Assembly: GCA_036396815.1 (NCBI GenBank) | Contig: DASWKD010000232.1 | Coordinates: forward strand, 1-30,227 | Direction: 5' to 3' | Length of the DNA: 30,227 nt | Source of the DNA: Actinomycetota bacterium | GTDB taxonomy: Bacteria; Actinomycetota; UBA4738; CALAEC01 | Part shown: one piece after another, positions 3,159 to 25,073 of the stretch | How positions within the stretch are numbered: position 1 is the stretch's first letter | Layout of the letters: the number at the start of each line of letters is the position of its first letter | The notes under the pieces: model-generated | Told to the model about the DNA's origin: nothing | The model's database searches: none | The model's input: only the letters and a program-made list of their open reading frames with translations | Made by a program: the position numbers and the translations under genes

Positions 3159-3944
3159 CTACAGCGTTCCCCGGATCAGACCGCCGTCCACTTGGTAGGC
3201 CGCCCCGGTGATGTAGGACGCTCGCTCAGAGGACAGGAAGGCGACCAGGTCGGCCAGCTCGCGGGGGTCTCCGAACCGACCGGCCGGGATGGTGGCAGCC
3301 TCCTCGCGCTCCACCTCCTCCACCGGGCGGCCCGAACGCCCGGCCCGGTCGGCCATCAGTTCGGACACGCGGTCGGTGCGGAACCGGCCCGGGAGGACCA
3401 GGTTCACGGTGATGCCCTCGGGAGCCAGCTCCGTGCTCAGGGTCTTGGCCCACCCCGCCACCCCGGACCGGGCGGCACTGGACAGGATCAGGTTGGCGAT
3501 GGGCTGCTTGATGGAGCTGGAGCCGATCACCACCACCCGGCCGTAGCCGGCCCGGCGCATCAGGGGCAGGGCCGCCCGGGTCATCCGCACCGTGGAGAAG
3601 AAGCTCAGCTCGAAGGCCTCCCGGAAGTCCTGGTCGGTCAGCTCCTCGAACCGGCCGAGCCTGGGCCCGCCGGCGTTGGCCACCAGGACCTGGCACCCAC
3701 CCACCGCCTGGGAGCCCTCGGCCACGAACCGCTCGGGCTCGGCGGCCACGTCCACGGCGAGGGCGGCCACCTCCGCGCCGGTGGCCGAGGCGATCTCCTC
3801 ACGGGCCGCCTGGACGGCGTCCGCGCTCCGGGCGGCGATGGCCACCTTCGCGCCCTCCCGGGCCAAGGCCAGCGCGCAGGCCTTGCCCAGGCCCCGGCTG
3901 GCCCCGGCCACCAGCGCCGGTCGCCCCTCCAGCCCCAGTTCCAC
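3159..3944 (-). CDS. SDR family oxidoreductase (FabG-like)
   Basis: ALVAGASRGLG nucleotide-binding motif, LVANAGGP, ITVNLVLPG, GRFGDPRELA...YITG...VDGG. Confidence 0.9.
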   Translation of the reverse strand: MELGLEGRPALVAGASRGLGKACALALAREGAKVAIAARSADAVQAAREEIASATGAEVAALAVDVAAEPERFVAEGSQAVGGCQVLVANAGGPRLGRFEELTDQDFREAFELSFFSTVRMTRAALPLMRRAGYGRVVVIGSSSIKQPIANLILSSAARSGVAGWAKTLSTELAPEGITVNLVLPGRFRTDRVSELMADRAGRSGRPVEEVEREEAATIPAGRFGDPRELADLVAFLSSERASYITGAAYQVDGGLIRGTL

Positions 3945-8390: not shown

Positions 8391-10418
8391 GTGACCAACC
8401 GTCTGGCCGCGGCGACCAGCCCGTACCTCCTCCCGCACGCGGGCAACCCCGTGGACTGGTACGAGTGGGGCTCCGAGGCCCTGGACCGGGCCACGGCCGA
8501 GGACCGGCCCATCCTGCTCTCGGTGGGGTACGCGGCCTGCCACTGGTGCCACGTGATGGAGCGCGAGTCGTTCGAGGACGAAGCGGTTGCCCGGCTGATG
8601 AACGAGGGCTTCGTGTGCATCAAGGTAGACCGGGAGGAGCGGCCGGACGTGGACGCCATCTACATGGACGCCGTCCAGGCCATGACCGGCCACGGCGGGT
8701 GGCCCATGACCGTGTTCCTGACCCCCGACCTCCAGCCGTTCTACGCGGGCACGTACTTCCCTCCCGAGGACCGCCACGGGATGCCGGGGTTCCCCAAGGT
8801 CCTGGAAGCCGTGACCAACGCGTGGGCCAACGAGCGCCACAAGATCCACGAGCAGGGCCGCCGGGTGACCGAGACCATCTCCCGCCGCCTGGCGCCATCG
8901 CCGGAGCCGCTGTCGGAGCGCCTGATCGAGGAGGCCCTGCGGGGCCTCCTGGGCGCCTACGACCGCGCGTGGGGCGGGTTCGGAGGAGCGCCCAAGTTCC
9001 CCCAGGCCATGACGCTGGACTTCCTGCTCCGGGCCCACCTCCGGGGGGAGGACCACGCCCTCCAGATGGCCACCACCACGCTGGCCCGCATGGCCGGGGG
9101 AGGGATCTTCGACCAGGTGGGCGGGGGCTTCCACCGGTACGCCACGGACGAGCGATGGCTGGTCCCCCACTTCGAGAAGATGCTGAACGACAACGCCCTG
9201 CTGGCCCGGACGTACCTCCACGCCTTCCAGGTGACCGGGCGCCGGGAGCTCCGGACGGTGTGCCGAGCCACCCTCGACTACCTCCTGCGGGACCTCCGGC
9301 ACCCCGACGGCGCCTTCTTCTCCGCCGAGGACGCGGACTCCGAGGGCCAGGAGGGCCGCTTCTACGTGTGGTCGTGGGACGACCTGGTGGCCGTGGCCGG
9401 CGAAGAGGCCGCCCGGTGGTTCGGGGCCTCGCCCGAGGGGAACTGGGAGGGCGCGAACATCCTGTGGACGGACGGCGAGCTCCGCGCCGTTCCACGGGAC
9501 GTCGAGGAAGCCCGGGGCACGCTCCTCGAGGCCCGGTCCGGCCGGGTCCGCCCGGCCACCGACGACAAGGTCCTGGCCGCGTGGAACGGCCTGGCCATCC
9601 GAGCCCTGGCCGAGGCCGGCCGGGTCCTGGGGGAGGCCCGGTACGTGGAGGCCGCCGAGCGGGCCGCGTCCTTCGTCCTGGCGGAGCTCCGGGGGCCGGG
9701 CGGCCGCCTCCTCCGGGCCTGGCGCGACGGCCGGACCAGCGGCCCCGGCTACGCCGACGACCACGCGTGCATGGCCGCGGCCTGCCTGACGCTGTACGAG
9801 ACCACCTTCGACCTGCGCTGGTTCCGGGAGGCCCGAGCCCTGGCCGACGACCTGATCCGCCTGTTCGAGGACCCCGAGGACGGGGGGTTCTACCAGACCG
9901 GCTCCGATGCCGAGGCGCTCCTGACCCGGCCCAAGGAGCTGTTCGACAACGCGGTGCCCTCCGGCAATTCGGTGGCCGCCGAGACGCTCCTCCGCTTGGC
10001 CCTGCTGACCGGCGACCCCACCTACGAGCGGAGCGCCGCCGGCGCCCTGCGCGCGGTGGGTGGGGTGCTCCCCCGGGCCCCGACGATGCTGGGGGAGGCG
10101 CTGGGAGCACTCGACCTGTACGTCGGGCCGTCGCGGGAGGTGGCGGTGATCGGCGACCCGAAGGCCGCAGCCCCCCTGGTGGAGCGGGTGTGGGAGGGGT
10201 TCCGACCCAACCTGGTCCTGGCCGCCGCCGCACCGGACGACCGCGGTGCCGCGGAGACCGTGGCCCTCCTGGCCGGCCGGCACGAGGTGGACGGGAAGCC
10301 GGCCGCCTACGTGTGCAGGCGGTTCGCGTGCGAAGCTCCGGTCACCGACCCCGATGCGCTATCGGCCCTCCTCGGCAGGTCCGCCGGCTCGTCGGATCAT
10401 AAACTCGACGGCCGGTGA
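8391..10418 (+). CDS. Thioredoxin domain-containing protein (DUF255/YyaL/SSP411 family)
   Basis: [81 protein letters not shown]. Confidence 0.93.
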
Positions 10419-11378
10419 CATGTTCGCCGGGATGAGCCGCGTCCCCGGGTGACGGGACGCCCACACCCGGAAGAGCTCATCGGCGAAGCCCTGGCCGACC
10501 TCCTCGACGCCCGCGAAGTCGATCTCCACCTCCTCGAATCCCTCGAGGTCCGCACCGATCCGTCTGGCCTCCGATCGGGAGACGAACCGGTCCCCGGTCC
10601 GGAACAGGCGGACGGCCACCCTCGACCGGGAGAACTCGTAGGAGTCCCGGGTGGTATAGCGCTCGAAGACATCCCGAAGGACGCGGGTGGTCGAGGGATC
10701 GAGGGCGCATCGGACCCGTGTCCCCTTGGAGCGGATGCTCTCGGTCACTGCTTCGTCGGCGCGGACGTTGTCCACGATCCATCGCAACCCGTTGGCGTCC
10801 AGCTCGAAGATGTCGACGGCCTTGGAAGTGAAGAAGATCCCCTCTCCCGTGTGCTGTTCCGGAGCCGTGGTCCGCTTCCCTTTGGTCAGCTCGAGCAGCG
10901 CCGTACGCTCGTCACCGAGACCGAGCCGCTGGCGGAGGTGCCTGTAGACGCCGACGCCGTCGTCCACGATCTCGAAAGCTGCCCGGGGTTCGCCGAGCCA
11001 CAGCAGGACTTCCGCCGATGATCCCCCGGAGTGCTCGATCGCGTTGTTCAGCATCTCCGTGAAGGCGTACCCGAGTATCGAGCGGGCGTTTGCCGTGATC
11101 CGTGACGGGAGGCGATCGTGGATCTCGCCCCACACCTCGTCTTCCTCCAGCCCGACCAGGGAGTACCGACGGGCGACATCGACCATGCGCGTATAGCGAG
11201 CGCCTCGTCCCCTGCCGGTGAGCGCCACCTCGCCCGCCGTGGCCAGCTTCCGGAGGTGGTAGTGAGCTGCCTGGCGGGTCACCCCGGCCGCCCGGGCCAC
11301 CTGGCCGCTGGTCACGCTCCCGTGCTGGGTCAGGAGGCGCCGGATCACGTCCCGGACGTCGGCCTTATCGCTACCCAC
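10359..11378 (-). CDS. wHTH - histidine-kinase-like ATPase - STAS-like (DUF4325) protein
   Basis: N-terminal HTH ([24 protein letters not shown]). HATPase boxes [30 protein letters not shown]-terminal FVSRSEARR...[20 protein letters not shown]. The 3' end overlaps the convergent gene by 60 nt. Confidence 0.85.
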
Positions 11379-11777: not shown

Positions 11778-12416
11778 TCAGTGTAGCGCCAGGCCCAGCG
11801 AACGGGAGAGGTCGGACACGGAGCGCTTCGGGTCCTCGTGGACGTATCCCCGCATGCCCAGGGCCTGGGCCGCCTCCACGTTGGGTGGGAAGTCGTCCAC
11901 GAACAGGCAGGCCTCCGGGGGCAGGCTCAGGCGATCCGCGGCCAGCCGGTAGATGTCGGCCAGCGGCTTCCGCAGGCCGACTTGGCCCGAGATGACAACG
12001 GTGTCGAACAGCTCCTCCAGCAGCGATGTGGGGTAGTAGTGCAGGCCCCAGGAGTTCGAGACCAGGGCCGTGCGGACGCCCGCCGCCCGGGCCCGCCGGA
12101 CCAGGTCCACCATCCCTTCCTCGATCCCGATGCCGGCCACCATGCGATCCACCAGCCCCTCATGGGCCACGGGCCGGTCCAGGCCCTCGGACAGGACCTC
12201 GGCCAGACGGCGCTCGAACTCCTCGACCTCCATGCGTCCGGTCTCCACCAGCGACACGAAGTGCTCGGGATCCTGGTCGTGGTACGCGGACTTCAACGCC
12301 TCGCGGAGGCCCGAGGGGTCCACGCCTTCCTCGGCGCAGAAGCGCTCGAAGGCCTCCCCCAGGGGGCCGGTCAGGACGCCGCCGAAGTCGATCAGGAGGC
12401 CCCGGATGTCACCCAC
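11778..12416 (-). CDS. HAD-family hydrolase/phosphatase (ACAD10/epoxide-hydrolase N-terminal-like)
   Basis: Motif I LLIDFGGVL, motif II LVSNSW, motif III LRKP, motif IV FVDDFPPNVEAA. Confidence 0.9.
   Translation of the reverse strand: MGDIRGLLIDFGGVLTGPLGEAFERFCAEEGVDPSGLREALKSAYHDQDPEHFVSLVETGRMEVEEFERRLAEVLSEGLDRPVAHEGLVDRMVAGIGIEEGMVDLVRRARAAGVRTALVSNSWGLHYYPTSLLEELFDTVVISGQVGLRKPLADIYRLAADRLSLPPEACLFVDDFPPNVEAAQALGMRGYVHEDPKRSVSDLSRSLGLALH
11780..11785 (-). promoter_or_regulatory. -10 box TACACT, probable leaderless promoter
   Basis: TACACT 7 nt upstream of ATG 11772, embedded in the end of the upstream HAD gene. Confidence 0.5.
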
Positions 12417-13431
12417 CGCCGGCCACCGCCACGGCCCGGGCGGCCAGGGCGGGCACCGCGGTCTCCATCCGGGCGAAGAAGGGATCGTCGGTGTGACCGG
12501 CCAGGTGCCGGGCGTAGGAGCCCTCCAGGAGGATGGCCAGCTTCCACATGGCCAGCACCCGGAACGGGGTCAGGTCTTGCGCGGCGCGGCCCGTGCGCTC
12601 GCGGTAGCGGTCCAGGAGCTCGGCGCGGGTGGCGAACCCCGGACCGGCGGTGGGCCCGGCCAGACCCAGCTCGTCGTCCGGCTCCCCGGGCTGGTGCCAG
12701 AACGAGAGCATCCACCCGAGGTCGGCCATCGGGTCGCCGACCGTGGACATCTCCCAGTCCAGGATGCCCGCCACCCGGGTGGGATCGGGCGCCAGCATCA
12801 CGTTGTCCAGCTTGTAGTCGCCGTGCACGATGGTAGCCGGGCCCGAGGCCTCGGGCAGGTGCTCGCGGAGCCAGTCGGCGGCGGCCAGGAGGTCGGGCAG
12901 GGGCCTGGTCATGGGGACGGTCAGCTCCAGCTGGCCCCGCCACCGGCGGACCTGCCGGTGGAGGTAGCCGTCGGGCCTGCCCCAGGCCTCCAGGCCGGCC
13001 GCCCACGGGTCCACGGCGTGGAGATCGGCCAGGGCGTCCACCAGCGCCGGCCCGATCGCTGCCGGGTCGAGGCCCGCGGTAACCTCGTCGCGGAGCACGT
13101 GGCCCTCGATCATCTCCATCAGGTGGAACGGCGTGCCGATCACGTCCCGGTCCTGACAGGAGAGCACGGGCCTCGGCGTCGGAACGGGCGTGTCCTTCAG
13201 GGCGTCGAGGACCCGGTGTTCCCGCAGTACGTCGTGGGCCGTCGGGAGGAACGCGCCGGCCGGCGGGCGGCGCAGGACCCACGCATGGCCGGAGCGGCGG
13301 ACGAAGAACGTCTCGTTCGAATGCCCGGCGCGATGCCGCTCCACCTCGAAGGAGCCAGTGCCGGGCAGCCGGTCGTCGAGGTACCGGCCCAGGGCCTCCG
13401 GGTCGAGCAGCCGGGGGGCCGTCTCCGGCAT
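12409..13431 (-). CDS. APH-family phosphotransferase (LvaA / ACAD10-11 kinase-like)
   Basis: 3' part of ORF 12409..13872, start ATG 13431 (TGATG overlap). AGHSNETF, WVLRRPP, AHDVLREHRVL, IVHGDYKLDNVML, ILDWEMSTVGDPMADLGW. Confidence 0.92.
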   Translation of the reverse strand: MPETAPRLLDPEALGRYLDDRLPGTGSFEVERHRAGHSNETFFVRRSGHAWVLRRPPAGAFLPTAHDVLREHRVLDALKDTPVPTPRPVLSCQDRDVIGTPFHLMEMIEGHVLRDEVTAGLDPAAIGPALVDALADLHAVDPWAAGLEAWGRPDGYLHRQVRRWRGQLELTVPMTRPLPDLLAAADWLREHLPEASGPATIVHGDYKLDNVMLAPDPTRVAGILDWEMSTVGDPMADLGWMLSFWHQPGEPDDELGLAGPTAGPGFATRAELLDRYRERTGRAAQDLTPFRVLAMWKLAILLEGSYARHLAGHTDDPFFARMETAVPALAARAVAVAGGG

Positions 13432-14639
13432 CACTCGACGGACCCCGTGGCGGCGCGCGTGCTCCCGTCGCGCTCCGATGCCTTCACCAGAGCCCGGGCG
13501 ATGGCCATGCGGTGGACCTCGGACGGGCCGTCGTAGATCCGGGCTGCGCGCGCGTCGCGGTACGCGGCCTCCAGCGGCGTGTCCGCCGAGTACCCCAGCG
13601 CCCCGTGGACCTGGAGCGCCCGGTCCACGATGTCGCCGAGGGCCTCGGCCACGAACACCTTGACCATGGCCACCTCCTGCCGGTGCTCCAGGCCTCGCTC
13701 CAGCTTCCACGCCGCGTGCAGGACCATGAGCCGGGCCGCGTGCAGCTGGATGGCCGAATCGGCCAGCCCGAAGGCCACGCCCTGGTGCCCGGCCAGCGCG
13801 CGGCCGAACGCCTCCCGGTCCCTGGCCCGGGCCGTGGCCAGGTCCAGAGCCCGCTGGGCCAGCCCGATCCACCGCATGGCGTGTCCCAGCCGGCCGTGGC
13901 CCAGGCGGCCCTGGGCGATGGCGAAGCCGTCACCCGCCGCGCCGACCAGCGCGTCGGCCGGGACCCGGCACCCCTCCAGCCGGATCTCGCAGTGGCCACC
14001 GGGGAGGTGCGTGCCCATGGTGGGAATGTCGCGGATCACCGTCCAGCCAGGCGTGTCCGTGGGGACCAGGAACAGCGAGGCCCGCCGGTGGGGCTCGGCA
14101 CCGGGGTCCGTGACCGTCATGACCAGCGCGAACGCCGCGCCGTCCGCGCCGCTGATGAACCACTTCTCGCCGTCCAGGACCCACCCGTCGCCGTCCCGGC
14201 GGGCCATGGCCCGCAGGAGGGTGGGGTCGGAGCCGGACACCTCCTTCTCGGTCATGGCGAAGCAGGACCGGATGGCGCCGTCGGCCAGCGGCCGGAGGTA
14301 CCGCTCCCGCTGTTCGTCGGTGCCGTGGTCGAGGAGGACGTGCATCGTGCCCTCGTCGGGGGCCATGCAGTTCAGGGCCAGCGAAGCCAGGGCCGAGACG
14401 CCACACGCCTCCTGGACCAGGGCCACACCGGTGGGCTCCAGACCCAGGCCTCCGTATGCCGCGGGGAGGTGCGGGTTCCACAGGCCGGCGGCCCGGGCCA
14501 CCTCGCGCAGGGGGACCAGGTCCCGGTCGGTGACCGGATCACCGATCCCGGGCTCGGCGGGAAGGACGTGGTCCCGGACGAACGCGCGGACGCGGTCGCG
14601 GATCTCTCGGAGGGCGGCGGGGATCGTGAAGTCGATCAT
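13431..14639 (-). CDS. Acyl-CoA dehydrogenase (LvaC / ACAD10-11-like subfamily)
   Basis: LNCMAPDEGTMHVL, IRSCFAMTE..SGSDP, GEKWFISGA, QGRLGHGRLGHAMRWIG, RIYDGPSEVH. GGAGG 8 nt upstream. Confidence 0.93.
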   Translation of the reverse strand: MIDFTIPAALREIRDRVRAFVRDHVLPAEPGIGDPVTDRDLVPLREVARAAGLWNPHLPAAYGGLGLEPTGVALVQEACGVSALASLALNCMAPDEGTMHVLLDHGTDEQRERYLRPLADGAIRSCFAMTEKEVSGSDPTLLRAMARRDGDGWVLDGEKWFISGADGAAFALVMTVTDPGAEPHRRASLFLVPTDTPGWTVIRDIPTMGTHLPGGHCEIRLEGCRVPADALVGAAGDGFAIAQGRLGHGRLGHAMRWIGLAQRALDLATARARDREAFGRALAGHQGVAFGLADSAIQLHAARLMVLHAAWKLERGLEHRQEVAMVKVFVAEALGDIVDRALQVHGALGYSADTPLEAAYRDARAARIYDGPSEVHRMAIARALVKASERDGSTRAATGSVE

Positions 14640-14661
14640 CGACCCATCCTCCCACCCGGGC

Positions 14662-15531
14662 TCACGCCCGGGCCACCACCACCCGGGTCACGTCTGGCCA
14701 GCCGCGCGTACTGCGGACTTCGCGGTACCCGTGGCGCTGGAGCACGCCCTTGACCGGCCGGGCACGATCGGGGCTGACCTCGATCAGGATCCACCCCCCC
14801 GGGCGGAGCCAGTCCCAGCCCTCCTCGACGGTCCGCTCCACCAGGTCCAGGCCGTGCTCGGAGTGGTCGGTCAGGACCTCGACGGGCTCGAACCCCCGGA
14901 TCTCCAGCGGGAGGTCCTCGATCTCGCCCTTGGGCACGTACGGCGGGTGGATGGCGACCACGTCCACGCGCCCCTTCAGCCGGCCGGGGAGCGGGCCGTA
15001 CAGGTCGCCCCGGTAGAAGCGCGCGTTGCGGAGGCCGAGCGCGCGGGCGTTCTCGCGGGCGTGGCGCAGGCCCACGTCCAGGAGGTCGGTGCCGTGCACG
15101 TCCGCGCGAGGGACCTCGTGGGCCACGGCCAGAGCGACGGGCCCGGCGCCGGTGGCCAGGTCCACCAGGACCGGTTTCGCCCGGCGGCGGAGACGGCGAA
15201 CGGCCTGCTCCGCCAGGAACTCGCTGGACTGCCGGGGGACGAACGCCCCGGGTCGCACGATCAGCTCCAGGTCGCGGAAGCGCGCGTAGCCCAGGATGTG
15301 GGCCATCGGCTCGCCCCCGGCCCTCCGGCGGACCAGGGCCCGGAACCGGGCCGCCCGCCGGGCATCCACGCTCTCGTCCGGATCCAGGTCGTCGGGGTCG
15401 TCCAGGCCCAGGACGTGGGCCAGCAGGGCCTCGGCCTCGATCGTCCCGCGATCGGCCGGCCACTGGTCGATGGCCGGGGAGCGCGACAGCCGCCGGGCGC
15501 CTTCCTCCACGAGCGTCGATGCTTCGGTCAC
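14662..15531 (-). CDS. PrmC/HemK-like SAM-dependent methyltransferase (divergent, HPPY motif)
   Basis: EAEALLAHVLG, RRAGGEPMAHILGYARFRDL, FVPRQSSE, VDLATGAGPVA, GDLYGPL, AIHPPYVP (canonical NPPY). No prfA neighbour. Confidence 0.85.
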   Translation of the reverse strand: MTEASTLVEEGARRLSRSPAIDQWPADRGTIEAEALLAHVLGLDDPDDLDPDESVDARRAARFRALVRRRAGGEPMAHILGYARFRDLELIVRPGAFVPRQSSEFLAEQAVRRLRRRAKPVLVDLATGAGPVALAVAHEVPRADVHGTDLLDVGLRHARENARALGLRNARFYRGDLYGPLPGRLKGRVDVVAIHPPYVPKGEIEDLPLEIRGFEPVEVLTDHSEHGLDLVERTVEEGWDWLRPGGWILIEVSPDRARPVKGVLQRHGYREVRSTRGWPDVTRVVVARA

Positions 15532-15578
15532 GAGGTCGTATCCTTCTACACGTCATGCCATCCAGGCGAATCCGACCC

Positions 15579-15914
15579 GTGCCCGCGCAGGAGGCCGAAG
15601 CCCTCAAGGCCGTCCGGATGATGACCGACCGCGTCCTGGTCAAGCGGCCCGAGGAGGACGCCGAGCGGAAGTCGAAGGGCGGCCTGCTGATCCCGGCCAC
15701 GGCCAGCAGCGTCGACCGCCGGGGGATGTGGGCCCGGGTGGCCGCCGTGGGGCCCAGCGTGCGCCAGGTGCACGAGGGCGACGAGGTCCTCCTCCTGCCC
15801 GACTCCGGGATCGAGGTCGACATCCGCGGCGAGGAGTTCCTCCTGGTCCGCGAGCGCGAGATCCACGCCGTGGCCTCTGAGCACGAGGACCCCGGCTCCG
15901 GGATCTACCTGTAG
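15579..15914 (+). CDS. groES: GroES/Cpn10-family co-chaperonin (orphan, actinobacterial type)
   Basis: RMMTDRVLVKR..ERKSKGGLLIPATA...VAAVGP...GDEVLL...EVDIRGEEFLLVREREIHAV. Start uncertain (GTG 15579 or ATG 15618/15621). No groEL adjacent. Confidence 0.85.
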   Translation: MPAQEAEALKAVRMMTDRVLVKRPEEDAERKSKGGLLIPATASSVDRRGMWARVAAVGPSVRQVHEGDEVLLLPDSGIEVDIRGEEFLLVREREIHAVASEHEDPGSGIYL

Positions 15915-16731: not shown

Positions 16732-19575
16732 CTACTCCAGGCGCAGGTTCCCGGACGAGAGGGTCACGTCGCCGGAGCCGTAGAGCATCGTCCCCATCGG
16801 GTCCCGGAGGGTGGCGGTGAAGGCATCGGCTCCGACGCCCGGCGCTCCCCCGTCGGCCACCGTGTACCGGAGCGTGCCGGGGAAGGCCCCGTTGACCATC
16901 CCCCGGACCTGGACCAGTGCCCGGTCCCCAGCCACGACCACCCAGTCGTACGCGTCGCCCTCGAACCGTCCGAAGGAGCCGTCCAGGCGGGTCGGGTTCT
17001 TCCACGCCGTGCCGTCGTGCTGGACGCCACCCAGGGTCAGTCGGGTCCGCATCGAGGCTGTGTCCGGTCCCATCCCGGCCCCGGCCAGGCTGCGCTCTCC
17101 GTCCATGACGGCCAGCTCGATGGTTCCGACGGCCCCGCCGGTCCAGTACAGGTTCGTCCCGGGGACCGTGACCTCCACACCCCACAGGTCGATGGGCAAG
17201 CCGGGCGCCACGGTGATGGCATCTCCCGAGGCGTCGACACCGGCCGTGAACGAGAGGGGCATCGAGGTCAGGGTGGGCGTCAGGTCGAAGCGGGCCTCGG
17301 CCAGCGACAGGTCCCCCGGCGAGCCGTCGGCGTCCTGGGTGGCGTGCGCCGCCAGCACGGGAGCGGCCGGGGCGACCACCGCGCCATCGCCCGTGTACGC
17401 GAAGGACAGCGTCTCCTTCCGGACCTGGTAGGCCACGGTGACCTCGGTGGGCAGGTACGTGGGGTCTCCATCGAACGAAGCCGTGGCCGGCACCAGGTCG
17501 GCGGGCTGGTCCAGGACGATCTGAGCGCTCCCCTGGCCGTCCGGCCCGGTCGTGGCCGAGGCTCCCTGCGGGCCCATCGCCAGGCCGATGGTCCGGCCGG
17601 GCAGCGGTGCGCCGTTGATGGCGTCGGTCAGGATGGCCGAGGCAGTCGTCGGATCGGAGTACTGGCCAACCGTGTCGCCGGCCCAGGCCAGAGCGGAGGG
17701 CCGCCGCTCCACCATGTAGGGGACGGTCACGGAGGCGGGAGCGTGCTTGCCGAACCGATCCATGGACACCGTGAGCTCATACGCGCCGGGGGGAACCGAC
17801 AGCGATGGGTCCGCCGAGGCCACGCCGTCCGCACCCGACACCCCCGATGCGGAGAGCGAGCCGCCCGGTCCGTCGAGCTCGAACATCACGGTGGCCCCCT
17901 CGACCGGTGGCGTGCCCGCGTCGTCAGGGTTCGTGACCTGCGCGGTGAACCCCGCTCCCTCTCCGGTCGGCGCGGAGGGCTGGCCCGTGTACGTCAGGTC
18001 GGTCTCGTCCAGGACCACGTTGACCTCGAACGGGCCGTTGGAGGCGATCGTCGGGTCCGAGAAGTCCCGCCCGACCACCCCGATGGTCTGGACGCCCGTG
18101 GGAGCATCGGCCGCGGGACGAAGAGGGATGAACGCCGTGGCCGGCTCGTGCTCTTCCAGCGTCTTGTGGTCGAACCCCGGGGTCCATCCGGCCGGCAGGT
18201 CGAAGAGCTCGAACCGGAACGTGTCGGTCTCCTCGCCGGTGTTCATCACCGGGATGCGCAGGATGTTGGTCTCCTCGGGCGTCACGTCGATCCGCATGGG
18301 ATGTCCGGTCTCGTCCATGGGATCGACCAGGATGCCCGGCCCCCGGACGTCGAAGAACACCCGCATCGAGCCGGAGGCCGCAGGGATGGCCCGCACGGCC
18401 ACCCGGGGGCCGGTGGTGGGGGCGAAGGCCCGCTGGGGCGTGTCGTCGTCGGACGGGTCCCAGGCGTCGATCCCGCTCCCTCCGTAGCAGCCGCCGTTGC
18501 ACCCGCCGGGGATGGTGCCGTCGGGCCGCTTGATCTCGATCGGTCGCACGGCGTTGGTGTCGCTGGTGTACAGGTCGTCATTGATCTCCCAGATCACCAG
18601 CCCGGAGTCGCTGGCGCTGTCGTCGTACGTCCCGTCCTCGCGGATACGGTTCTCCACGATGTAGTACCGATCGGTGCCCTCATCGGGGTCGTACAGGATG
18701 AAGTGCTCGCCGGCCAGGTTCAGGCCGTTGACGTCCCCGTAGGCATCCCGGGTGGGGATGTAGGGGTTCGCCCAGCCGAGGTGCAGGAGGTGCCAAGCCG
18801 TGGTGCGCCGGAGGCTGAGGGGGGCGTTGTTGCAGGTCGGCCCCATGATGTCGAATCGTCCGACCCCCGCCCGGTACCGGTCGATGGTGTCCAGAGCCAC
18901 GTGGGTGGTCTCGTGGATGATCGTGGCCAGGTTGGTGTCCGTGCCGTCGTTCGTGGTCTCGATCTCCATGTCCACGCCGTCGAGGGTCACCGGGTCCACA
19001 CCGCGCGTCGTCCCGCATCCCCCGACCAGGTCGGGATCGGCGTCGAAACGATGGACCACCAGCTCCAGGTTCGTGATCCGGCCGTCGCCGTTCCTGTCGA
19101 AGTCCGAGAAGTCGACGAAGGGATCGGCCTCTTCGAGCAGGAACTTCGCTTCGGCGGAACGCCCCATCTGGAGGAAGTCACCCTTGTCTTGGTCCACGGA
19201 TATCGAGACGATCCCGTCGTTCACCGCACCCCCGTTCGAGGCGTCGGTCTCCAAGGCCCGGGAGAACACCAGGTCCCCGTGGGAGTTCTCGATGAAGTAG
19301 TCGCGGACGCTGGGGAACGGCCCGAAGAACCGCTCCTCCCAGAACGCGGCGTCCTGCCCCGCCGGGTACGGGACGTCGTTGAACTCCGCGTACAGGACGA
19401 GCATCGGCCGGTCGGTGCTGCCACCCGTGAACGAGTACCGCTCGCTGTGCGGATCGTCGCGGTGCGCGAAGTCCGGAAGGTCGTCCGGATAGGGCGGAGC
19501 GGCCGCGGCGGACCCTCCGGAGATAAGGACGGACACGATCACGGCGGTCGTGAGGGCCTTGGGCGTGGACAGCAT
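16732..19575 (-). CDS. Secreted M6-like (immune inhibitor A-type) zinc metallopeptidase with C-terminal Ig-like domains
   Basis: Signal peptide. MLVLYAEFND and SVRDYFIENSHG (M6 N-terminus). Zinc motif IIHETTHVALDTIDRY, Met-turn FDIMG, HLGW, YYIVENR. Followed by several Thr/Pro/Gly-rich beta-sandwich repeats. SD GGAGGGAG. Confidence 0.8.
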   Translation of the reverse strand: MLSTPKALTTAVIVSVLISGGSAAAAPPYPDDLPDFAHRDDPHSERYSFTGGSTDRPMLVLYAEFNDVPYPAGQDAAFWEERFFGPFPSVRDYFIENSHGDLVFSRALETDASNGGAVNDGIVSISVDQDKGDFLQMGRSAEAKFLLEEADPFVDFSDFDRNGDGRITNLELVVHRFDADPDLVGGCGTTRGVDPVTLDGVDMEIETTNDGTDTNLATIIHETTHVALDTIDRYRAGVGRFDIMGPTCNNAPLSLRRTTAWHLLHLGWANPYIPTRDAYGDVNGLNLAGEHFILYDPDEGTDRYYIVENRIREDGTYDDSASDSGLVIWEINDDLYTSDTNAVRPIEIKRPDGTIPGGCNGGCYGGSGIDAWDPSDDDTPQRAFAPTTGPRVAVRAIPAASGSMRVFFDVRGPGILVDPMDETGHPMRIDVTPEETNILRIPVMNTGEETDTFRFELFDLPAGWTPGFDHKTLEEHEPATAFIPLRPAADAPTGVQTIGVVGRDFSDPTIASNGPFEVNVVLDETDLTYTGQPSAPTGEGAGFTAQVTNPDDAGTPPVEGATVMFELDGPGGSLSASGVSGADGVASADPSLSVPPGAYELTVSMDRFGKHAPASVTVPYMVERRPSALAWAGDTVGQYSDPTTASAILTDAINGAPLPGRTIGLAMGPQGASATTGPDGQGSAQIVLDQPADLVPATASFDGDPTYLPTEVTVAYQVRKETLSFAYTGDGAVVAPAAPVLAAHATQDADGSPGDLSLAEARFDLTPTLTSMPLSFTAGVDASGDAITVAPGLPIDLWGVEVTVPGTNLYWTGGAVGTIELAVMDGERSLAGAGMGPDTASMRTRLTLGGVQHDGTAWKNPTRLDGSFGRFEGDAYDWVVVAGDRALVQVRGMVNGAFPGTLRYTVADGGAPGVGADAFTATLRDPMGTMLYGSGDVTLSSGNLRLE

Positions 19576-19639
19576 CTCGGGCTCCCTCCCCCAGGGGATC
19601 CGAACGGGCGGATCCCCCTCAGATGTGGCGAACCCCTCG

Positions 19640-19668
19640 ATTCAATCCCCGGACCATGAGCCTGTCAA
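19640..19668 (-). promoter_or_regulatory. Sigma70-type promoter TTGACA-N17-TTGAAT for the M6-like gene
   Basis: Minus strand: TTGACA (19668-19663), 17 nt, TTGAAT (19645-19640), about 65 nt upstream of ATG 19575. Confidence 0.65.
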
Positions 19669-19680
19669 GACCGCCACATG

Positions 19681-19712
19681 GGAGGGAGCCCCCGTGACCG
19701 GGGGCTCCCTCC
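19681..19712 (-). terminator. 14-bp perfect hairpin, probable terminator of the M28 gene
   Basis: GGAGGGAGCCCCCG-TGAC-CGGGGGCTCCCTCC, 22 nt after the stop at 19735 and just upstream of the next promoter. Confidence 0.75.
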
Positions 19713-19734
19713 TCCGTTCGGGCGCTCGGACGTG

Positions 19735-21453
19735 CTAGACGGCCGCGGTTCCGATCTTGAGCTGCATGGTGTCCGACTGCTCGGTGTCCGGGTCGGTCAC
19801 CGTCAGGGTCACGATGTGGCCCTTGGCCGCGCCGAACATGTGAGTGACCACCTTGCCTGTCGCCGTGACCCCGTCGCCGAAGTCCCATGCGTACTCGAGC
19901 GAGTCATCCATCTCCAGGGTCCCGGCGTCCTCGTACCGGTAGGAGCCCGAGGCGTCGAAGGTGTGGGTCCCGCCGTTCATGTTGGGGCTGGGGGTCTCGA
20001 AGAAGGCCACCGGCTCCTCGTTCACGGTCTGCGAACCGCCCTGGGTGGGCTGGAGCATGGTCGCCGCAGACAGGATCGAGCACAGCTCGAACGACATGGA
20101 CAGGCCCTTCGAGAAGGTCGTCCCCGTCTGGTCGGCGTGGGTCTGGGCCACCAGCTGCTCCCAGTTGTCGTGCGGCGAGTGGTACACCCACAGCCCGTCG
20201 GGGCCGTAGCCCAGGTCGTTCGGGTTGGTCGAGACCGCGTGCGGGCCCACCAGGTCCGGGTACGGGTTCAGGGTGGGGACCCAGTTGTGGAAGTCCTCGG
20301 CATCGGTGGTGAATAGGAGGAGGCCCTTCTCGGTGACCTTGAGCACACTCTCCTGCTCCAGGGCCGCCGCCCCAAGCTCCGTGGCCTCCTCGTTGGACAG
20401 GAACACCGGGACCACGCCGGGCTCCTGGCTCTGGCCCGTGTACGACAGGGTGTCGTCGATGTTGTTGAAGATGGCGTTGATGAGCGGCCGCATGCTGGCG
20501 TTGAAGGCCGTCATCCGGGCCCGCTCCTCGGTGGTGCCGGCCGGGGCGTGCAGGGCGATGTTCATGGGGATGAACGGGCTCTTCTCCACGGCCGGGTTCC
20601 GCGACACGGGAGACCCGCGGTAGAAGGCGGGGTAGTGGCCGCCGCACGGGTCGTGGTTGATGTACGAGGTCAGGGTGACGTTGGGATCCTTGGGCAGGCT
20701 CCCGTTCTGGGAGGTCCGGCTGTTCTCGGTTCCGACGTACAGCTTGGAGCCCTGCCCGCCGGCCTCCTCCGCGTCCCACGCGGCGAAGATCACGGTCTTC
20801 GACGGGCGCGTCCCGGTGGCCTTCCAGTAGTCGGCGAGGAGCTTCGCGGTGCGCAGCATGGTGCCTGAGCCGGCCGTCGAGTCCCACGCGGCGTACGGAG
20901 AGCCGTCCACACCGTCGTAGTGGCTGCCGATCAGCACGAAGTCCTCGGGGTTGTCGGCGCCGGGCACGATGGCGAACTTGTTGAAGGCCCGTCCGGCGTT
21001 GGTATCGAAGTTGTCGCCCAGCCCGGTAAGGCCCCCTCCCCCACCGGTGGAGGTGAACTCCTGGGTCCGGAAGCTCACCCCGACGTCCTTGAGGACGTCG
21101 GTGTAGGCGGTCTCGAACCAGGCCAGGTACTCCAGCTGGTGGTTGTACGTGCACCCGATGTCCCGGACGTCACCGATGACCTTGCACTGGGGCTGGTCAC
21201 CGGAGGGGTCGTTCGTGGTGGTATCGCCCGGCTGGCGGTTGGTCAGGTTGTTCGCCACGAAGTTCACCACGTTGTACGAGTTATACGTCCGCCAGTTGTC
21301 CAGGTCCGCCAGGTCGGGGATGGGCTGGTACAGGTCGGTCAGCTTCTTCAGGTCCAAGGGCAGGGAGCTTTCCTCGGCCTGGCTCTGGGGCATCCCGGTG
21401 AGGAGCATGGCCAGCGAGGCCACCAGAGCAACCGCAAGGCGCAGCTTGGTCAT
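19735..21453 (-). CDS. Secreted M28-family metallopeptidase with C-terminal PKD domain
   Basis: Start ATG 21453 (SD AGAAAGGA), signal peptide. Metal-ligand motifs IGSHYDG, AWDSTAGSG, AWDAEEAG, INHD, YHSPHDNW. PKD: FDASGS...YAWDFGDG...HMF...VTLTVTD. Confidence 0.88.
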   Translation of the reverse strand: MTKLRLAVALVASLAMLLTGMPQSQAEESSLPLDLKKLTDLYQPIPDLADLDNWRTYNSYNVVNFVANNLTNRQPGDTTTNDPSGDQPQCKVIGDVRDIGCTYNHQLEYLAWFETAYTDVLKDVGVSFRTQEFTSTGGGGGLTGLGDNFDTNAGRAFNKFAIVPGADNPEDFVLIGSHYDGVDGSPYAAWDSTAGSGTMLRTAKLLADYWKATGTRPSKTVIFAAWDAEEAGGQGSKLYVGTENSRTSQNGSLPKDPNVTLTSYINHDPCGGHYPAFYRGSPVSRNPAVEKSPFIPMNIALHAPAGTTEERARMTAFNASMRPLINAIFNNIDDTLSYTGQSQEPGVVPVFLSNEEATELGAAALEQESVLKVTEKGLLLFTTDAEDFHNWVPTLNPYPDLVGPHAVSTNPNDLGYGPDGLWVYHSPHDNWEQLVAQTHADQTGTTFSKGLSMSFELCSILSAATMLQPTQGGSQTVNEEPVAFFETPSPNMNGGTHTFDASGSYRYEDAGTLEMDDSLEYAWDFGDGVTATGKVVTHMFGAAKGHIVTLTVTDPDTEQSDTMQLKIGTAAV

Positions 21454-21511
21454 GTCCGTGATCCTTTCTCGAAGGTCCTGCCCCGGTTGTTCACCGGACC
21501 CCCTCGGAAAC

Positions 21512-21533
21512 CCTTTGTGCACATGCACAAAGG
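21512..21533. promoter_or_regulatory. Palindromic operator-like site, copy 2 (CCTTTGTGCA-CA-TGCACAAAGG)
   Basis: Perfect 10-bp arms. Intergenic, 58 nt upstream of the M28 start. Confidence 0.8.
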
Positions 21534-21574
21534 CCAGAGGGGGATCCCTCCCCCGGTGTCCGTTCCGTCCCGGT

Positions 21575-23614
21575 TCAGCCGACCGTGACCGCCTCCGACC
21601 GCTCGTGGCAGGCGTCCGCGAAGCAGGCCCGGACCACCGCGGTGTAGTCGCCGGGGGCCAGCCCCTCCACCGCCGCCTGGAACGAGGACAGGTCACCCGA
21701 CAGGCCGGCCGGGGTCGAGGCCACCTCGGTCCCGGAGCCATCGAGGACCGAGATCTGGACCGTGGCCTCGGGCACGGTGAACGTCCCCGAGCCCGTCCCG
21801 GTGTCGGGGCCCACGAACACGGTCCCGGCGGCCGTTCCCGTTTCCACCGCCACCCGCACGTCGACGGCGGTGGGCCGGACGGTACCTCCCGGGGCCAGGC
21901 CCAGCGCGGCCAGGGGCACCCGGGCCACCGCCCGATCCCCTCCCAGGTCGAAGTCCCCGCGGACCCGCTGGCAGGGGGCCCCGGTCCGGCACACCTCGAA
22001 GCGCCTGGGCGTGCCTCGCATGCGCAGGGAGTAGGTGGCCCCTCCCACGTCCAGGGTCCACTCGGCCTCGGCGGGGGACTGCACGGCCTCGAGCATGCCC
22101 TCGATCCCGAGGACGAACACCAGGTCGTCGGAGCGGGCCGTGGTCCGGGCGATGGTGCCCGCACGGATGTCGTAGGACGACGTCCCGTCCTCGTCGTTCA
22201 CCACGGTGACGGGGGCAGCCCGGCCGAAGGTGGCCGCGCCCGACACGTCCACCGAACCGATGCCTCCGGCGACCGTCAGATCGTCGATCGAGGTCTGGTC
22301 CGTGGCGTGGGTGATGATCCGAGGCCCGCCCGCCTGGACCACCCAGTCGGTGCACATGTTCTTGTACGCTGCGGCCCCTCCGTGCGCGCTCAGGTTGCCA
22401 TTGCACCCGGGCAGATGGTCCTCCACGAACGAGATGTGGAACCGGCCATCCGGGCCCACCGCGATCTGCTGGTAGTCCCACAGCGTCCGGCCCAAGGATC
22501 CACGGTGGATCACCCGGTCCAGCGTCCCGTGGGTGATCACCGGCGCGTCCGAAGCCGCCCCGGTGATGACCGCGGCCTTGACCCTCCACTCGGACGTGGC
22601 AGGCACCGAGTTCTGATGGGCCTTCGAGGGGTTGTGGTACCAGGTCAGAGCCACCCGCCCGTCGTCTCCGGCGGCCACCCAGGGGAACGTGGAGCACCCC
22701 TCGTCCTGATTCACCCGGTACTGCTGCCATGTGGCGCCCTTGTCGGAGGAGACCGTCAGGTACACGTCGCACCCGCTGCCGTTGATGTCGGCCCACGTGC
22801 CGTACACGTTCCCGGCCCGGTCCACGTCCACGCTGACCATGAACGGGGCGATCCCGTTGCGAGGGGACGTCGCCGCGGGGGCCTCGGACCACGTCTCCCC
22901 CGCGTCGTGCGAGGACACCGTGCACAGCGAGCTGGACCCGGGGGCGCACCGGCCGAAGAAGTACACGTCGTCGGTCCGGCGGTCGGCGGCCACGTTGCCC
23001 GGGAAGAACCGCTGGCCGGCGCCGATCGTGTTGTAGGCGTCCATCCAGGTGTGGCCGCCGTCGGTGGACTTCCAGATCTGGGTGTGGGTCACGTGGTTGA
23101 CGTACAGGTAGATGGCCCCGTTCGAGTACGAGAGCCAGGGCCGGTCGTCGACACCCGGGAGCACCGTCACCGTCTCATCGGTGTACTCCCACACGTCGCC
23201 GCGTCCGCTCCACTTGGTCAGGAAGATGCTGGGCACCCAGGTGTCGGAGAAGTACACGGAGCCGGCGTCGTCGATCACGAAGTCGCCCTCGGCCCCGAAG
23301 CCCCACTCGCGGGCCTTGCCCGGCGAGGGGAGGTCGGTCCACGTGGCGCCATCGTCCTTGGAGTACCAGGCGGGGGCGGCCCGGGCCACGCAGCACACCC
23401 CGGCCACGTAGATCGTCCCGGCCTCGTCCACCTTGATGCTGGGCTCCCCCGGCCCGCCCACCTGGGCCGGGTCGGTGAACGGCATCCGGACCGGGGCCCC
23501 GAAGGAGATCCCCTCCTCGTGCACGGGCTCGGGGGCCCCAGCCCCCTGGGAGGGCCCGGGGACCACGATCCCCGCAGCCACGACCGCCGTCACCAGCACC
23601 AGCTTCGCTCTCAT
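21575..23614 (-). CDS. Secreted Asp-box (BNR)/sialidase-like beta-propeller protein with unnamed C-terminal module
   Basis: Start ATG 23614 (SD AAGGAG), signal peptide. Four Asp-boxes: YSKDDGATW, KSTDGGHTW, SSHDAGETW, SSDKGATW. GEPSIKVD and DRPWL are typical of this propeller family. Confidence 0.85.
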   Translation of the reverse strand: MRAKLVLVTAVVAAGIVVPGPSQGAGAPEPVHEEGISFGAPVRMPFTDPAQVGGPGEPSIKVDEAGTIYVAGVCCVARAAPAWYSKDDGATWTDLPSPGKAREWGFGAEGDFVIDDAGSVYFSDTWVPSIFLTKWSGRGDVWEYTDETVTVLPGVDDRPWLSYSNGAIYLYVNHVTHTQIWKSTDGGHTWMDAYNTIGAGQRFFPGNVAADRRTDDVYFFGRCAPGSSSLCTVSSHDAGETWSEAPAATSPRNGIAPFMVSVDVDRAGNVYGTWADINGSGCDVYLTVSSDKGATWQQYRVNQDEGCSTFPWVAAGDDGRVALTWYHNPSKAHQNSVPATSEWRVKAAVITGAASDAPVITHGTLDRVIHRGSLGRTLWDYQQIAVGPDGRFHISFVEDHLPGCNGNLSAHGGAAAYKNMCTDWVVQAGGPRIITHATDQTSIDDLTVAGGIGSVDVSGAATFGRAAPVTVVNDEDGTSSYDIRAGTIARTTARSDDLVFVLGIEGMLEAVQSPAEAEWTLDVGGATYSLRMRGTPRRFEVCRTGAPCQRVRGDFDLGGDRAVARVPLAALGLAPGGTVRPTAVDVRVAVETGTAAGTVFVGPDTGTGSGTFTVPEATVQISVLDGSGTEVASTPAGLSGDLSSFQAAVEGLAPGDYTAVVRACFADACHERSEAVTVG

Positions 23615-23669
23615 CGCTTGGGCTCCTTCCCTTCGCTGGGTGAAGTGTTCGCCCCAGGGGGCCCCGGTC

Positions 23670-23691
23670 CCTTTGGGCATCTGCACAAAGG
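23670..23691. promoter_or_regulatory. Palindromic operator-like site, copy 3 (CCTTTGGGCA-TC-TGCACAAAGG)
   Basis: One mismatch from perfect. Sits between the divergent Asp-box (55 nt away) and LVIVD (74 nt away) genes. Confidence 0.78.
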
Positions 23692-23765
23692 GTTCCGGAG
23701 CCCTCACGGTGAAGAAACCGTGAAGGGGCGGGCCCGCACGCCCGGACCCCGATCGAGGAGGAACG

Positions 23766-25073
23766 ATGAAGCTGAGGATGCGTCTCGTGGCCCTGGCGGC
23801 CCTGCTCACCACCGTGCTGGCCACCGGAGGGTTCAGCCCCGCCCGGAACCTGGCCCCGGGCGACCCGTCCATGCTGAACCTGGCCCACGTCTACACCTTC
23901 GACACGGGAGGCGGGCCGACGGATCCCACGGGCAAGGGGACCGACGTCGAGTTCTACACGTCGACGGTGCCCCTGCGCGACTACACGACCGGCGAGCTGA
24001 TCCTCGACGAGGAGGGCAACCAGATCCTGGTCGACAAGGACTTCGCCATCATGGGCTCCTACGGCGGCGGCGGCTGGGTGTTCGACATCACCGACCCGGA
24101 GAACGTGCAGTTCGTGCGGAACATCCCCTGCAACCAGACCCAGAACGACGTCCAGCTCAAGAAGTTCGAGGAGCGGTGGATCCTGGCCCTTGCCCGTGAC
24201 GGAGGCAGCAACCCGTGCAACACCGGGGTGCCCAACAAGGGGAGCGGCGGAGCGGGCATCGCCGTGTTCGACGTAACGGACCCCTACGCGTTCACGCGGA
24301 TATACAACTTCCGGAACACGGGGGGCGCTCACAACTTCACGTTCCACCCGACCAAGCCGTACGGCTGGGTGTCCACCGGGGACCTTCCGGGAGCGCTGAA
24401 CCACATCCCGATCATCAACTTCACGGACGTGGACAACCCCACCCTGGCCGCGGACATCCAGGTCGAGGGGGGTCCTCACGACATCTCGTTCAGCGCAGAC
24501 GGGCTCCGGGCCTACGTGGCCTCGGAGAACAACGCGAGGATCTACGACGTGTCGAACCCGGCTGCTCCCGTCCTGATCTCGCGGACCCCCAACGCGGGCA
24601 CGTACTCGCACGGGTTCGATCCCACGCCCGACCGGTCCATGGCCGTGGTGACCAACGAGAGCCTGGCCCTGGGCGGGTTCTTCGCCGGCGGATCAACCGT
24701 CTGTCCGGGCGAGGGCCTGACCTTCTTCGACATCGAGGGCTCGAACGAGGCCACACCCATCCCCGTGGGCGAGTACCTGCCCACCGGCTTCGCCGGGCGG
24801 GCACCCGACAACAGGGCCTGCACGGGGCACGTGGGGCGCATCGCGCCCAACAGCCACGTGCTCTCCACGGGCTGGTACATCGGCGGCGTGCGGGTCGTGG
24901 ACTTCGCCAACCCGAGTCTCCCCACGGAGGTCGCGCACGCTGTCATGCCCGGGACCGAGGTGTGGGCGGCCAAGATGTACAAGGGCCCCTACATCTACTC
25001 GGCCGACATGCGGCGTGGATTCGACGTCTACAAGTGGAGCGGGACCGGCACCGCCCCCTGGGTGGCGCCGTAA
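23766..25073 (+). CDS. Secreted LVIVD-repeat beta-propeller protein
   Basis: SD GAGGAGG, signal peptide. Repeated blades GWVFDITDPEN, IAVFDVTDP, IINFTDVDNP, RIYDVSNPAAP, FFDIEG, VRVVDFANPSLP. Recurring His (HNFT, HDIS, YSHG, TGHV). Confidence 0.87.
   Translation: MKLRMRLVALAALLTTVLATGGFSPARNLAPGDPSMLNLAHVYTFDTGGGPTDPTGKGTDVEFYTSTVPLRDYTTGELILDEEGNQILVDKDFAIMGSYGGGGWVFDITDPENVQFVRNIPCNQTQNDVQLKKFEERWILALARDGGSNPCNTGVPNKGSGGAGIAVFDVTDPYAFTRIYNFRNTGGAHNFTFHPTKPYGWVSTGDLPGALNHIPIINFTDVDNPTLAADIQVEGGPHDISFSADGLRAYVASENNARIYDVSNPAAPVLISRTPNAGTYSHGFDPTPDRSMAVVTNESLALGGFFAGGSTVCPGEGLTFFDIEGSNEATPIPVGEYLPTGFAGRAPDNRACTGHVGRIAPNSHVLSTGWYIGGVRVVDFANPSLPTEVAHAVMPGTEVWAAKMYKGPYIYSADMRRGFDVYKWSGTGTAPWVAP

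Follow-up and report, generated by a model that had tools for sequence, protein, structure and literature searches.

A translationally coupled acyl-CoA dehydrogenase, kinase and HAD phosphatase operon of Actinomycetota as a candidate split counterpart of ACAD10

We describe here a three-gene operon in a 30,227-nt stretch of Actinomycetota DNA (GenBank assembly GCA_036396815.1, contig DASWKD010000232.1; the whole stretch is termed the window) that encodes an acyl-CoA dehydrogenase (ACAD)-fold enzyme, an APH-fold small-molecule kinase and a HAD-superfamily phosphatase, i.e. the three modules of ACAD10, which is a HAD-kinase-ACAD fusion, two of them also being present in the kinase-ACAD fusion ACAD11. 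On balance, and judged from gene structure, residue conservation, predicted fold and comparative linkage, we favor an interpretation according to which the operon is a split bacterial counterpart of ACAD10, with a kinase, a phosphate-eliminating ACAD and a phosphatase HAD that would work together with the kinase. Coupling of the three genes had already been described in a first-pass annotation of this DNA and was confirmed from the translations and the junction DNA: the ACAD stop codon (TGA, 13433-13431) and the kinase start codon (ATG, 13431-13429) have 1 nt in common in the sequence TGATG, while the kinase stop codon (TGA, 12411-12409) and the HAD start codon (GTG, 12416-12414) lie in an 8-nt overlap, GTGGGTGA. 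This GTG is the sole in-frame start between the upstream stop codon and the catalytic Asp10 of the HAD. Likewise, every motif quoted in the first-pass annotation (NCMAPDEGTM, QGRLGHGR and DGPSEVH for the ACAD, HGDYKLDN and LDWEMSTVGDP for the kinase) was found in the translations.

The ACAD and the kinase can, with good confidence, be assigned to the ACAD10/11 type, as structure ranking and hallmark residues agreed with this type in every sequence feature that we compared. The best PDB matches of the kinase were 9o56 (223 bits), 3dxp (200 bits) and the ACAD11 kinase domain (188 bits), with the next unrelated APH scoring 48 bits. As in ACAD10/11, the kinase has the HxDxKxxN loop (in the form HGDxKxxN), the DWE metal motif and the beta3 Arg/alphaC Glu pair, and its residues R54, E71, D205, K207, N210, D225 and E227 align to R61, E78, D214, K216, N219, D234 and E236 of 9o56. 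The latter structure appears to be the Caldalkalibacillus 'ACAD10 kinase' of a recent preprint (bioRxiv 10.1101/2025.09.10.675409), to judge from the agreement between its numbering and the residues given in that work; mutation of these seven residues in the C. thermarum kinase abolished or markedly cut activity (bioRxiv 10.1101/2025.09.10.675409). In addition, R159 aligns to ACAD11 R176, which contacts CoA (PMC12440821). The nearest structures and every alignable hallmark residue thus agree with the kinase type originally proposed.

For the ACAD, a comparison with all PDB chains gave the mycobacterial FadE2-type enzyme 4hr3 and mouse/human ACAD11 as best matches (261-280 bits), ordinary ACADs reaching at most 215 bits, which places the enzyme closer to ACAD11/FadE2 than to ordinary ACADs. 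Its residues R245, R250, H253, M255, R256, D370 and H216 align to R626, R631, H634, M636, R637, D753 and H597 of ACAD11. Like ACAD10/11, the enzyme therefore has the catalytic Asp (D370 in YDGPSEVH, aligned to the Asp of LADGPDEVH in ACAD11) and the Arg/His/Arg phosphate cradle (R245, H253 and R256, equivalent to R626 and to H634 and R637 of HCMR, all on one helix in ACAD11); R250 corresponds to the general R631, and Cys635 is replaced with Ala, giving HAMR. The cradle and the catalytic Asp have been reported to be essential and specific to ACAD10/11/LvaC, the Asp (ACAD11 D753) replacing the usual Glu of ACADs in a phospho-elimination mechanism (PMC12440821). The enzyme is predicted to be an FAD-dependent 4-phosphoacyl-CoA phosphate-eliminating enzyme. 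A tree of 48 actinobacterial ACADs, rooted with one distant outgroup only, separated into two clades. Members of the canonical clade carry RLGPGRIHHCMR and DGPDEVH, identical to mouse ACAD11, and score ~446 bits against ACAD11. The second clade comprises 12 rows including the enzyme of the window, and is characterized by R-x4-R-x2-HAMR in 11 of the 12 (HCMR in the remaining one) and, where readable, by the C-terminal motif DGPSE[VI]H; its members were seen only at ACAD-kinase-HAD loci. Assignment to the ACAD10/11 type was thus upheld by the nearest structures and the aligned hallmark residues, but the enzyme would represent a diverged HAMR/DGPSEVH subclade of this type rather than the canonical ACAD11-like form: it differs from ACAD10/11 in having HAMR/DGPSEVH instead of HCMR/DGPDEVH, and its similarity to ACAD11 is moderate.

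The HAD matched by far best to the NCBIfam model TIGR02247 ('epoxide hydrolase N-terminal domain-like phosphatase'), with a score of 102.6 bits that stays below the curated cut-off of 125.4 bits. Among solved structures, 2pr7 and the soluble epoxide hydrolase (sEH; EPHX2) phosphatase domain are nearest to it in sequence. An AlphaFold2 model (pLDDT 91) displays a Rossmann-like core and a five-helix cap (residues 19-30, 34-46, 53-58, 64-76 and 88-92), and its top 20 fold matches in the PDB were all the human sEH phosphatase domain (TM 0.80-0.85), to which motifs II-IV can also be aligned (S120/N121, K150, D174-D175). Unlike sEH with its full DxD, the HAD family of the window has Gly in place of the general acid/base Asp+2 (motif I D10-F-G-G-V). 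Residues D10, G12, S120/N121, K150 and D174-D175 were invariant across 12 HAD orthologues, with motif I conforming to D-[FYW]-G-G-V, and none of the 123 scorable sequences among the 149 nearest 50%-identity cluster representatives from an exhaustive search had Asp at +2. The ACAD10 HAD domain likewise has only the first Asp of DxD (PMC11342911), its predicted structure has a five-helix cap and most resembles the lipid phosphatase of EPHX2, and residues 1-212 constitute the active domain in C. elegans ACAD10 (bioRxiv 10.1101/2025.09.10.675409). The likeness claimed in the first-pass annotation thus extends to the sEH-like fold with its multi-helix cap, to size and to loss of the second Asp, and from these shared traits together with the linkage described below we infer that the HAD is a counterpart of the ACAD10 HAD domain. 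Sequence searches led to bacterial proteins throughout: word-based searches of longer proteins with the HAD or kinase as query returned only bacterial proteins and no ACAD10, an exhaustive HMMER search with the HAD gave only stand-alone HADs among the best 150, and a protein-atlas search with the HAD gave only bacterial HAD clusters. One putative HAD-kinase fusion (P0006) was discarded because of an apparent frameshift in the gene call. A bacterial protein of 743 aa from a JGI metagenome (P0018) naturally joins ACAD and kinase, in an order that is the reverse of ACAD11's kinase-ACAD; matches obtained with it as query were dominated by 431-aa actinobacterial ACADs and included no ACAD10.

Linkage of the HAD to the kinase is widespread among Actinomycetota, as revealed by a neighborhood survey of the kind suggested in the first-pass annotation, in which many other genomes also had the HAD beside the kinase. 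The kinase is encoded immediately upstream of the HAD in 13 of 40 same-order relatives (8 published; 5 unpublished: G008, G012, G014, G016 and G030), in most cases with the ACAD upstream of the kinase. In an even sample of 400 Actinomycetota genomes, the HAD was found in 76 and the kinase in 180. At least 40 of the 76 have both side by side; of these 40, 31 are published and come from 10 families, and 9 are unpublished (G014, G030, G041, G057, G085, G206, G258, G270 and G299). Of the 28 closest kinase orthologues in this sample, 27 are HAD-linked. A species-level scan with the HAD motifs yielded at least 592 loci, of which the best 80 were used for locus counts: the kinase lies directly upstream of the HAD in 63 and is missing from 17. 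The only or nearest HAD start overlaps the kinase stop by 4, 8, 11 or 14 nt in most of 60 loci. In a kinase tree, a single clade (SH-aLRT 94) united 70 of the 74 HAD-linked rows with 4 unlinked ones, leaving 4 HAD-linked rows outside, although this sampling is biased since HAD-linked rows were drawn from the HAD search. The HAD-kinase linkage is far above chance and more than inherited gene order, and the HAD quite probably acts as a functional partner of the kinase. The original proposal is thus supported in part: the ACAD and kinase are of the ACAD10/11 type by structures and residues, and the HAD is conserved beside the kinase, so that neither of the two observations named beforehand as contradicting it was made.

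The arrangement of the modules varies with lineage. The order ACAD-kinase-HAD is that of the window's clade, the kinase-HAD pair alone is found in Solirubrobacterales (genomes with the lone pair have a canonical ACAD elsewhere), and in Frankiales/Mycobacteriales-type metagenome-assembled genomes the ACAD is divergent from the kinase-HAD pair. The order HAD-kinase-ACAD, colinear with ACAD10, occurs in the cultured Allokutzneria sp. NRRL B-24872 and Longimycelium tulufanense (Table 1); the ACAD of the latter scores 446 bits against mouse ACAD11, and a divergent TetR gene was seen upstream of the Allokutzneria locus. In same-order relatives, synteny of a PrmC-like methyltransferase gene with the HAD gene is kept with or without the ACAD-kinase pair, and a rhodanese gene follows the HAD gene, including in relatives without ACAD and kinase. 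Both genes flank the HAD only in the window's own order (rhodanese after HAD in none of 78 loci, L044-L121, beyond the window's close relatives) and their conservation therefore reflects local synteny; in the window, they are probably further members of the operon, and they are lineage-specific neighbors outside of the conserved core. At one locus (L148, G185:C163:13727-14965), the ACAD gene upstream of the kinase-HAD pair contains one in-frame TGA, which may reflect pseudogenization, codon recoding or an error in the sequence.

According to the model that we favor, translational coupling would cause the three proteins to be made in fixed proportion. The kinase would use ATP to phosphorylate a hydroxylated lipid, a step suggested by conservation of the catalytic and CoA-contacting residues; its most likely target would be the 4-hydroxyl of a 4-hydroxyacyl-CoA, because the coupled ACAD has a complete phosphate cradle and the kinase keeps the CoA-contacting Arg. 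The ACAD-fold flavoenzyme would then eliminate the phosphate to yield 2-enoyl-CoA, as conservation of the Arg/His/Arg cradle and the catalytic Asp suggests, and cellular enoyl-CoA hydratases would pass this product into beta-oxidation. The HAD, a putative Mg-dependent phosphatase partnering the kinase, would dephosphorylate the phospho-lipid, for which its fold, the invariant nucleophile Asp, Lys and Asp-Asp, and its linkage argue. It would most likely trim excess or off-pathway kinase product and serve as a safety valve preventing pile-up of the phosphorylated intermediate, but could equally act on a lysophosphatidate-like lipid phosphate, and we name any specific HAD substrate only tentatively. 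Bacterial kinase and ACAD orthologues can stand in for the ACAD10 domains, as demonstrated with those of B. pseudomallei, and mutation of the first Asp of the ACAD10 HAD raises 4-phosphoacyl-CoA (PMC11342911). The metagenome-assembled genome to which the window belongs as contig C232 (1.65 Mb, 73% complete, ~71% G+C) encodes four enoyl-CoA hydratases and three AMP-binding enzymes (acyl-CoA ligases) elsewhere; at E<=1e-40, only two ACAD genes were found in this assembly, one being that of the operon's ACAD10/11-type enzyme.

Several points weigh against a split ACAD10 counterpart of this kind. With 4-phosphohexanoyl-CoA as substrate, the recombinant ACAD10 HAD was almost inactive (PMC11342911), and alkylglycerol is an in vitro substrate of bacterial homologues of the kinase (bioRxiv 10.1101/2025.09.10.675409). 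If one hydroxyl were both phosphorylated by the kinase and dephosphorylated by the phosphatase, the result would be a futile cycle unless regulated. The ACAD of the window scores 270 bits against ACAD11, compared with 446 bits for the canonical actinobacterial type, so that its substrate may differ. Among the best 80 HAD loci, only 19 have an ACAD gene within 6 kb; it is the kinase (beside the HAD in 63 of the 80) rather than the ACAD that is conserved as its partner, which revises the first-pass annotation in this respect. In three same-order genomes (G002, G015 and G024; 68-87% complete), PrmC-HAD-rhodanese occurs with no ACAD between and the kinase was not found genome-wide; in G002 and G024, whose HADs were aligned, all catalytic residues are intact, and the HAD should therefore have some use of its own. 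Finally, the HAD gene is followed by a WS/DGAT (wax ester synthase/diacylglycerol acyltransferase) gene in 15 Mycobacteriales/Frankiales/Nanopelagicales-type loci (listed in part in Table 1), most of which add a patatin-like lipase and often DUF6912, and 10 of these 15 loci have no kinase. Two database gene calls even run the HAD into WS/DGAT. Such loci may represent a neutral-lipid gene cluster with the HAD as lipid-phosphate phosphatase. In about 35 Solirubrobacterales loci, moreover, the kinase-HAD pair is followed at a distance of no more than a few kb by an aldehyde dehydrogenase gene on the opposite strand. Taken together, the WS/DGAT, patatin, aldehyde dehydrogenase and kinase-less HAD contexts favor a lipid-phosphate substrate, in agreement with the lipid-phosphatase activity described for the ACAD10 HAD domain and the alkylglycerol kinase activity described for bacterial homologues of the kinase; in particular, the position of the HAD ahead of WS/DGAT and patatin genes argues for this over the levulinate-type catabolic unit that had initially been envisaged.

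According to an alternative that we regard as unlikely, the substrates of kinase and HAD, as a lipid kinase and a lipid phosphatase, would be (alkyl/acyl)glycerols and lysophosphatidate-like lipid phosphates, in keeping with what has been reported for the corresponding ACAD10 domains, and the ACAD would have a separate or secondary function. Of 47 Solirubrobacterales-clade rows, 46 have the kinase-HAD pair with no ACAD next to it, and this would be in line with such a role, as would the 15 WS/DGAT-patatin-DUF6912 clusters, the two gene calls extending from the HAD into WS/DGAT, the WS/DGAT genes beside a canonical ACAD in three genomes and the sEH lipid-phosphatase domain as nearest HAD fold. 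Moreover, chimyl alcohol is phosphorylated by prokaryotic homologues, and the HAD of C. elegans removes phosphate from 1-alkyl/acyl-2-acetyl-glycerol-3-phosphate (bioRxiv 10.1101/2025.09.10.675409). However, the kinase of the window is translationally coupled to an ACAD with the whole phosphate-binding cradle and retains the Arg that contacts CoA in ACAD11, and phosphorylation and dephosphorylation of related lipids by one operon needs extra explanation. WS/DGAT was not found in the window's own 73%-complete genome with a WS/DGAT protein query; a Pfam WS/DGAT search of this genome gave no match, as did the control searches. Alternatively, the HAD could lack phosphatase function and instead be a ligand sensor that binds and restrains the kinase, a role that has been suggested for the ACAD10 HAD domain, in which the D48A mutation raises kinase output though the domain has negligible phosphatase activity (PMC11342911). 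Family-wide loss of the general acid/base Asp+2 can be reconciled with such a function, and translational coupling would favor complex formation, but we consider it improbable: the invariant Asp10, motif II Ser/Asn, Lys150 and Asp174-Asp175 point to catalysis, a HAD with these residues intact persists in kinase-less genomes, and Mg-dependent phosphatase activity has been reported for the HAD of C. elegans ACAD10 (bioRxiv 10.1101/2025.09.10.675409). Even the idea that the HAD is an unrelated housekeeping phosphatase, the ACAD-kinase pair having been inserted between PrmC and HAD, could invoke the three genomes with PrmC-HAD-rhodanese but no ACAD or kinase and the 17 kinase-less loci among the best 80. 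It is nonetheless very improbable in view of kinase-HAD adjacency in at least 10 families with varied gene orders and flanks and with stop/start overlaps, the lack of PrmC and rhodanese in the flanks outside of the window's own order, and the fusion of the same three modules in eukaryotic ACAD10.

Parts of the system have precedents. In the lvaABCDE operon of P. putida, LvaA is the kinase and LvaC the ACAD (Rand et al. 2017, as summarized in PMC11342911 and PMC12440821); the operon of the window resembles it in having separate kinase and ACAD-fold genes with predicted 4-hydroxyacyl-CoA phosphorylation followed by phosphate elimination, but no gene for LvaB, LvaD (short-chain dehydrogenase/reductase, SDR) or LvaE (ligase) is adjacent. 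This absence had been noted in the first-pass annotation and was borne out: none of the genes next to the operon encodes an acyl-CoA ligase, SDR, hydratase or small LvaB-like protein, the nearest SDR gene being located at 3159-3944. Conversely, the lva operon has no counterpart of the ACAD10 HAD domain (PMC12440821), whereas the operon of the window has a HAD. Canonical actinobacterial pairs of FadE2-type ACAD and APH kinase (4hr3, 3dxp, 9o56) belong to the same two families and are often neighbors; they mostly come without a HAD, and their ACADs have the ACAD11-identical RLGPGRIHHCMR/DGPDEVH, unlike the enzyme of the window. Compared with ACAD10, the window has three separate overlapping genes in the order ACAD-kinase-HAD. 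The split kinase and ACAD module as such is already known (P. putida Lva and the B. pseudomallei orthologues in PMC11342911), while no description of a bacterial HAD partner was found in the ACAD10/Lva literature searched. What appears to be new is that kinase and HAD form a conserved and translationally coupled pair in Actinomycetota, that this pair also occurs in three-gene forms, one of them colinear with ACAD10, and that there is a HAMR-type ACAD subclade.

The ACAD10 HAD domain can no longer simply be called poorly understood, as in the first-pass annotation, since two conflicting functions have meanwhile been published. Three recent papers on ACAD10 are in conflict with each other (PMC12440821, PMC11342911, bioRxiv 10.1101/2025.09.10.675409): ACAD10 is described either as a 4-hydroxyacyl-CoA kinase plus phosphate eliminase, the HAD domain being left aside, or as having a HAD with almost no phosphatase activity that yet restrains the kinase (PMC11342911), or as an alkylglycerol kinase plus lipid-phosphate phosphatase (bioRxiv 10.1101/2025.09.10.675409). 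Separate small bacterial proteins, together with cultivable carriers, make this disputed HAD function directly testable. Beyond this, the HAD travels with the kinase in hundreds of species, with the ACAD present or absent and sometimes beside neutral-lipid genes; the split system suggests an origin of the three-domain architecture of ACAD10; and a diverged HAMR/DGPSEVH ACAD subclade, found only in ACAD-kinase-HAD operons, has been flagged. A more far-reaching scenario, which we offer as doubtful speculation, is that kinase and HAD make up an ancient, independent two-enzyme unit in Actinomycetota which controls the phosphorylation of a lipid hydroxyl and is joined, depending on lineage, by an ACAD10/11-type ACAD or by WS/DGAT and patatin. 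ACAD10 would then have arisen by fusion of an Allokutzneria/Longimycelium-like HAD-kinase-ACAD operon, and the HAMR-type ACADs would be phosphate-eliminating enzymes of a novel subfamily that acts on its own substrate.

Coordinates of the genes discussed are collected in Table 1. On the minus strand, the order is PrmC-like gene, ACAD, kinase, HAD, rhodanese, an AT-richer spacer of ~70 nt and a gene for an HTH/ATPase/STAS-like protein. The PrmC-like protein scored 189.6 bits against NCBIfam TIGR03534 (cut-off 199.1 bits). Third-position GC amounts to 0.89-0.97 in the real frames, with a frame switch exactly at the gene junctions, because of which long alternative open reading frames are considered spurious; on grounds of codon-position GC, we ruled out a longer kinase frame (12409-13872) and an alternative upstream frame (14636-15823). 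A sigma-70 promoter scan gave no match at the locus, and matches in a terminator scan were not above chance, with one weak site 3' of the rhodanese gene.

Table 1. Features of the operon in the window and of related loci in other genomes.
Feature	Position	Strand	Remarks
PrmC-like N5-glutamine methyltransferase, 289 aa	14662-15531	minus	22 nt upstream of ACAD
Shine-Dalgarno-like GGGAGGA	14647-14653	minus	7 nt upstream of ACAD ATG; read directly from sequence
ACAD10/11-type acyl-CoA dehydrogenase-fold enzyme (probable type), 402 aa	13431-14639	minus	Pfam ACAD N, M and C domains
ACAD10/11-type APH-fold small-molecule kinase (probable type), 340 aa	12409-13431	minus	Pfam APH, E 5e-51
HAD-superfamily phosphatase, epoxide-hydrolase-N-terminal type, 212 aa	11778-12416	minus	Pfam HAD, E 7e-14
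Single-domain rhodanese, 106 aa	11452-11772	minus	Pfam Rhodanese, E 9e-20; 5-nt gap after HAD
HAD-kinase-ACAD locus, Allokutzneria sp. NRRL B-24872	L060:6001-8879		
HAD-kinase-ACAD locus, Longimycelium tulufanense	L120:6001-8845		
HAD-WS/DGAT loci	L050:5968-9539		also L046, L049, L051, L057, L062, L066, L101, L109, L114, L117

Some further observations concern individual neighborhoods. The aldehyde dehydrogenases of the Solirubrobacterales loci are 63-89% identical among loci (e.g. L099:4593-8183), with no ACAD within 6 kb. In three genomes with a lone kinase-HAD pair (L143-L145; G306, G177 and G082), a canonical ACAD11-like ACAD adjoins a WS/DGAT gene, and a second, more distant HAD paralogue is located 5-6 kb away. 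Within the window, a 131-aa Cpn10/GroES-like protein with an N-terminal extension of ~30 residues is encoded at 15519-15914 on the plus strand, divergent from the PrmC-like gene. The minus-strand gene at 10359-11378 encodes a protein with HTH, histidine-kinase-like ATPase and STAS-like DUF4325 domains, to which no NCBIfam model matches. The region 16732-25073 encodes a series of large, probably secreted proteins of the types Big_1/CarboxypepD_reg, M28 peptidase with PKD, sortilin/Asp-box-like and LVIVD.

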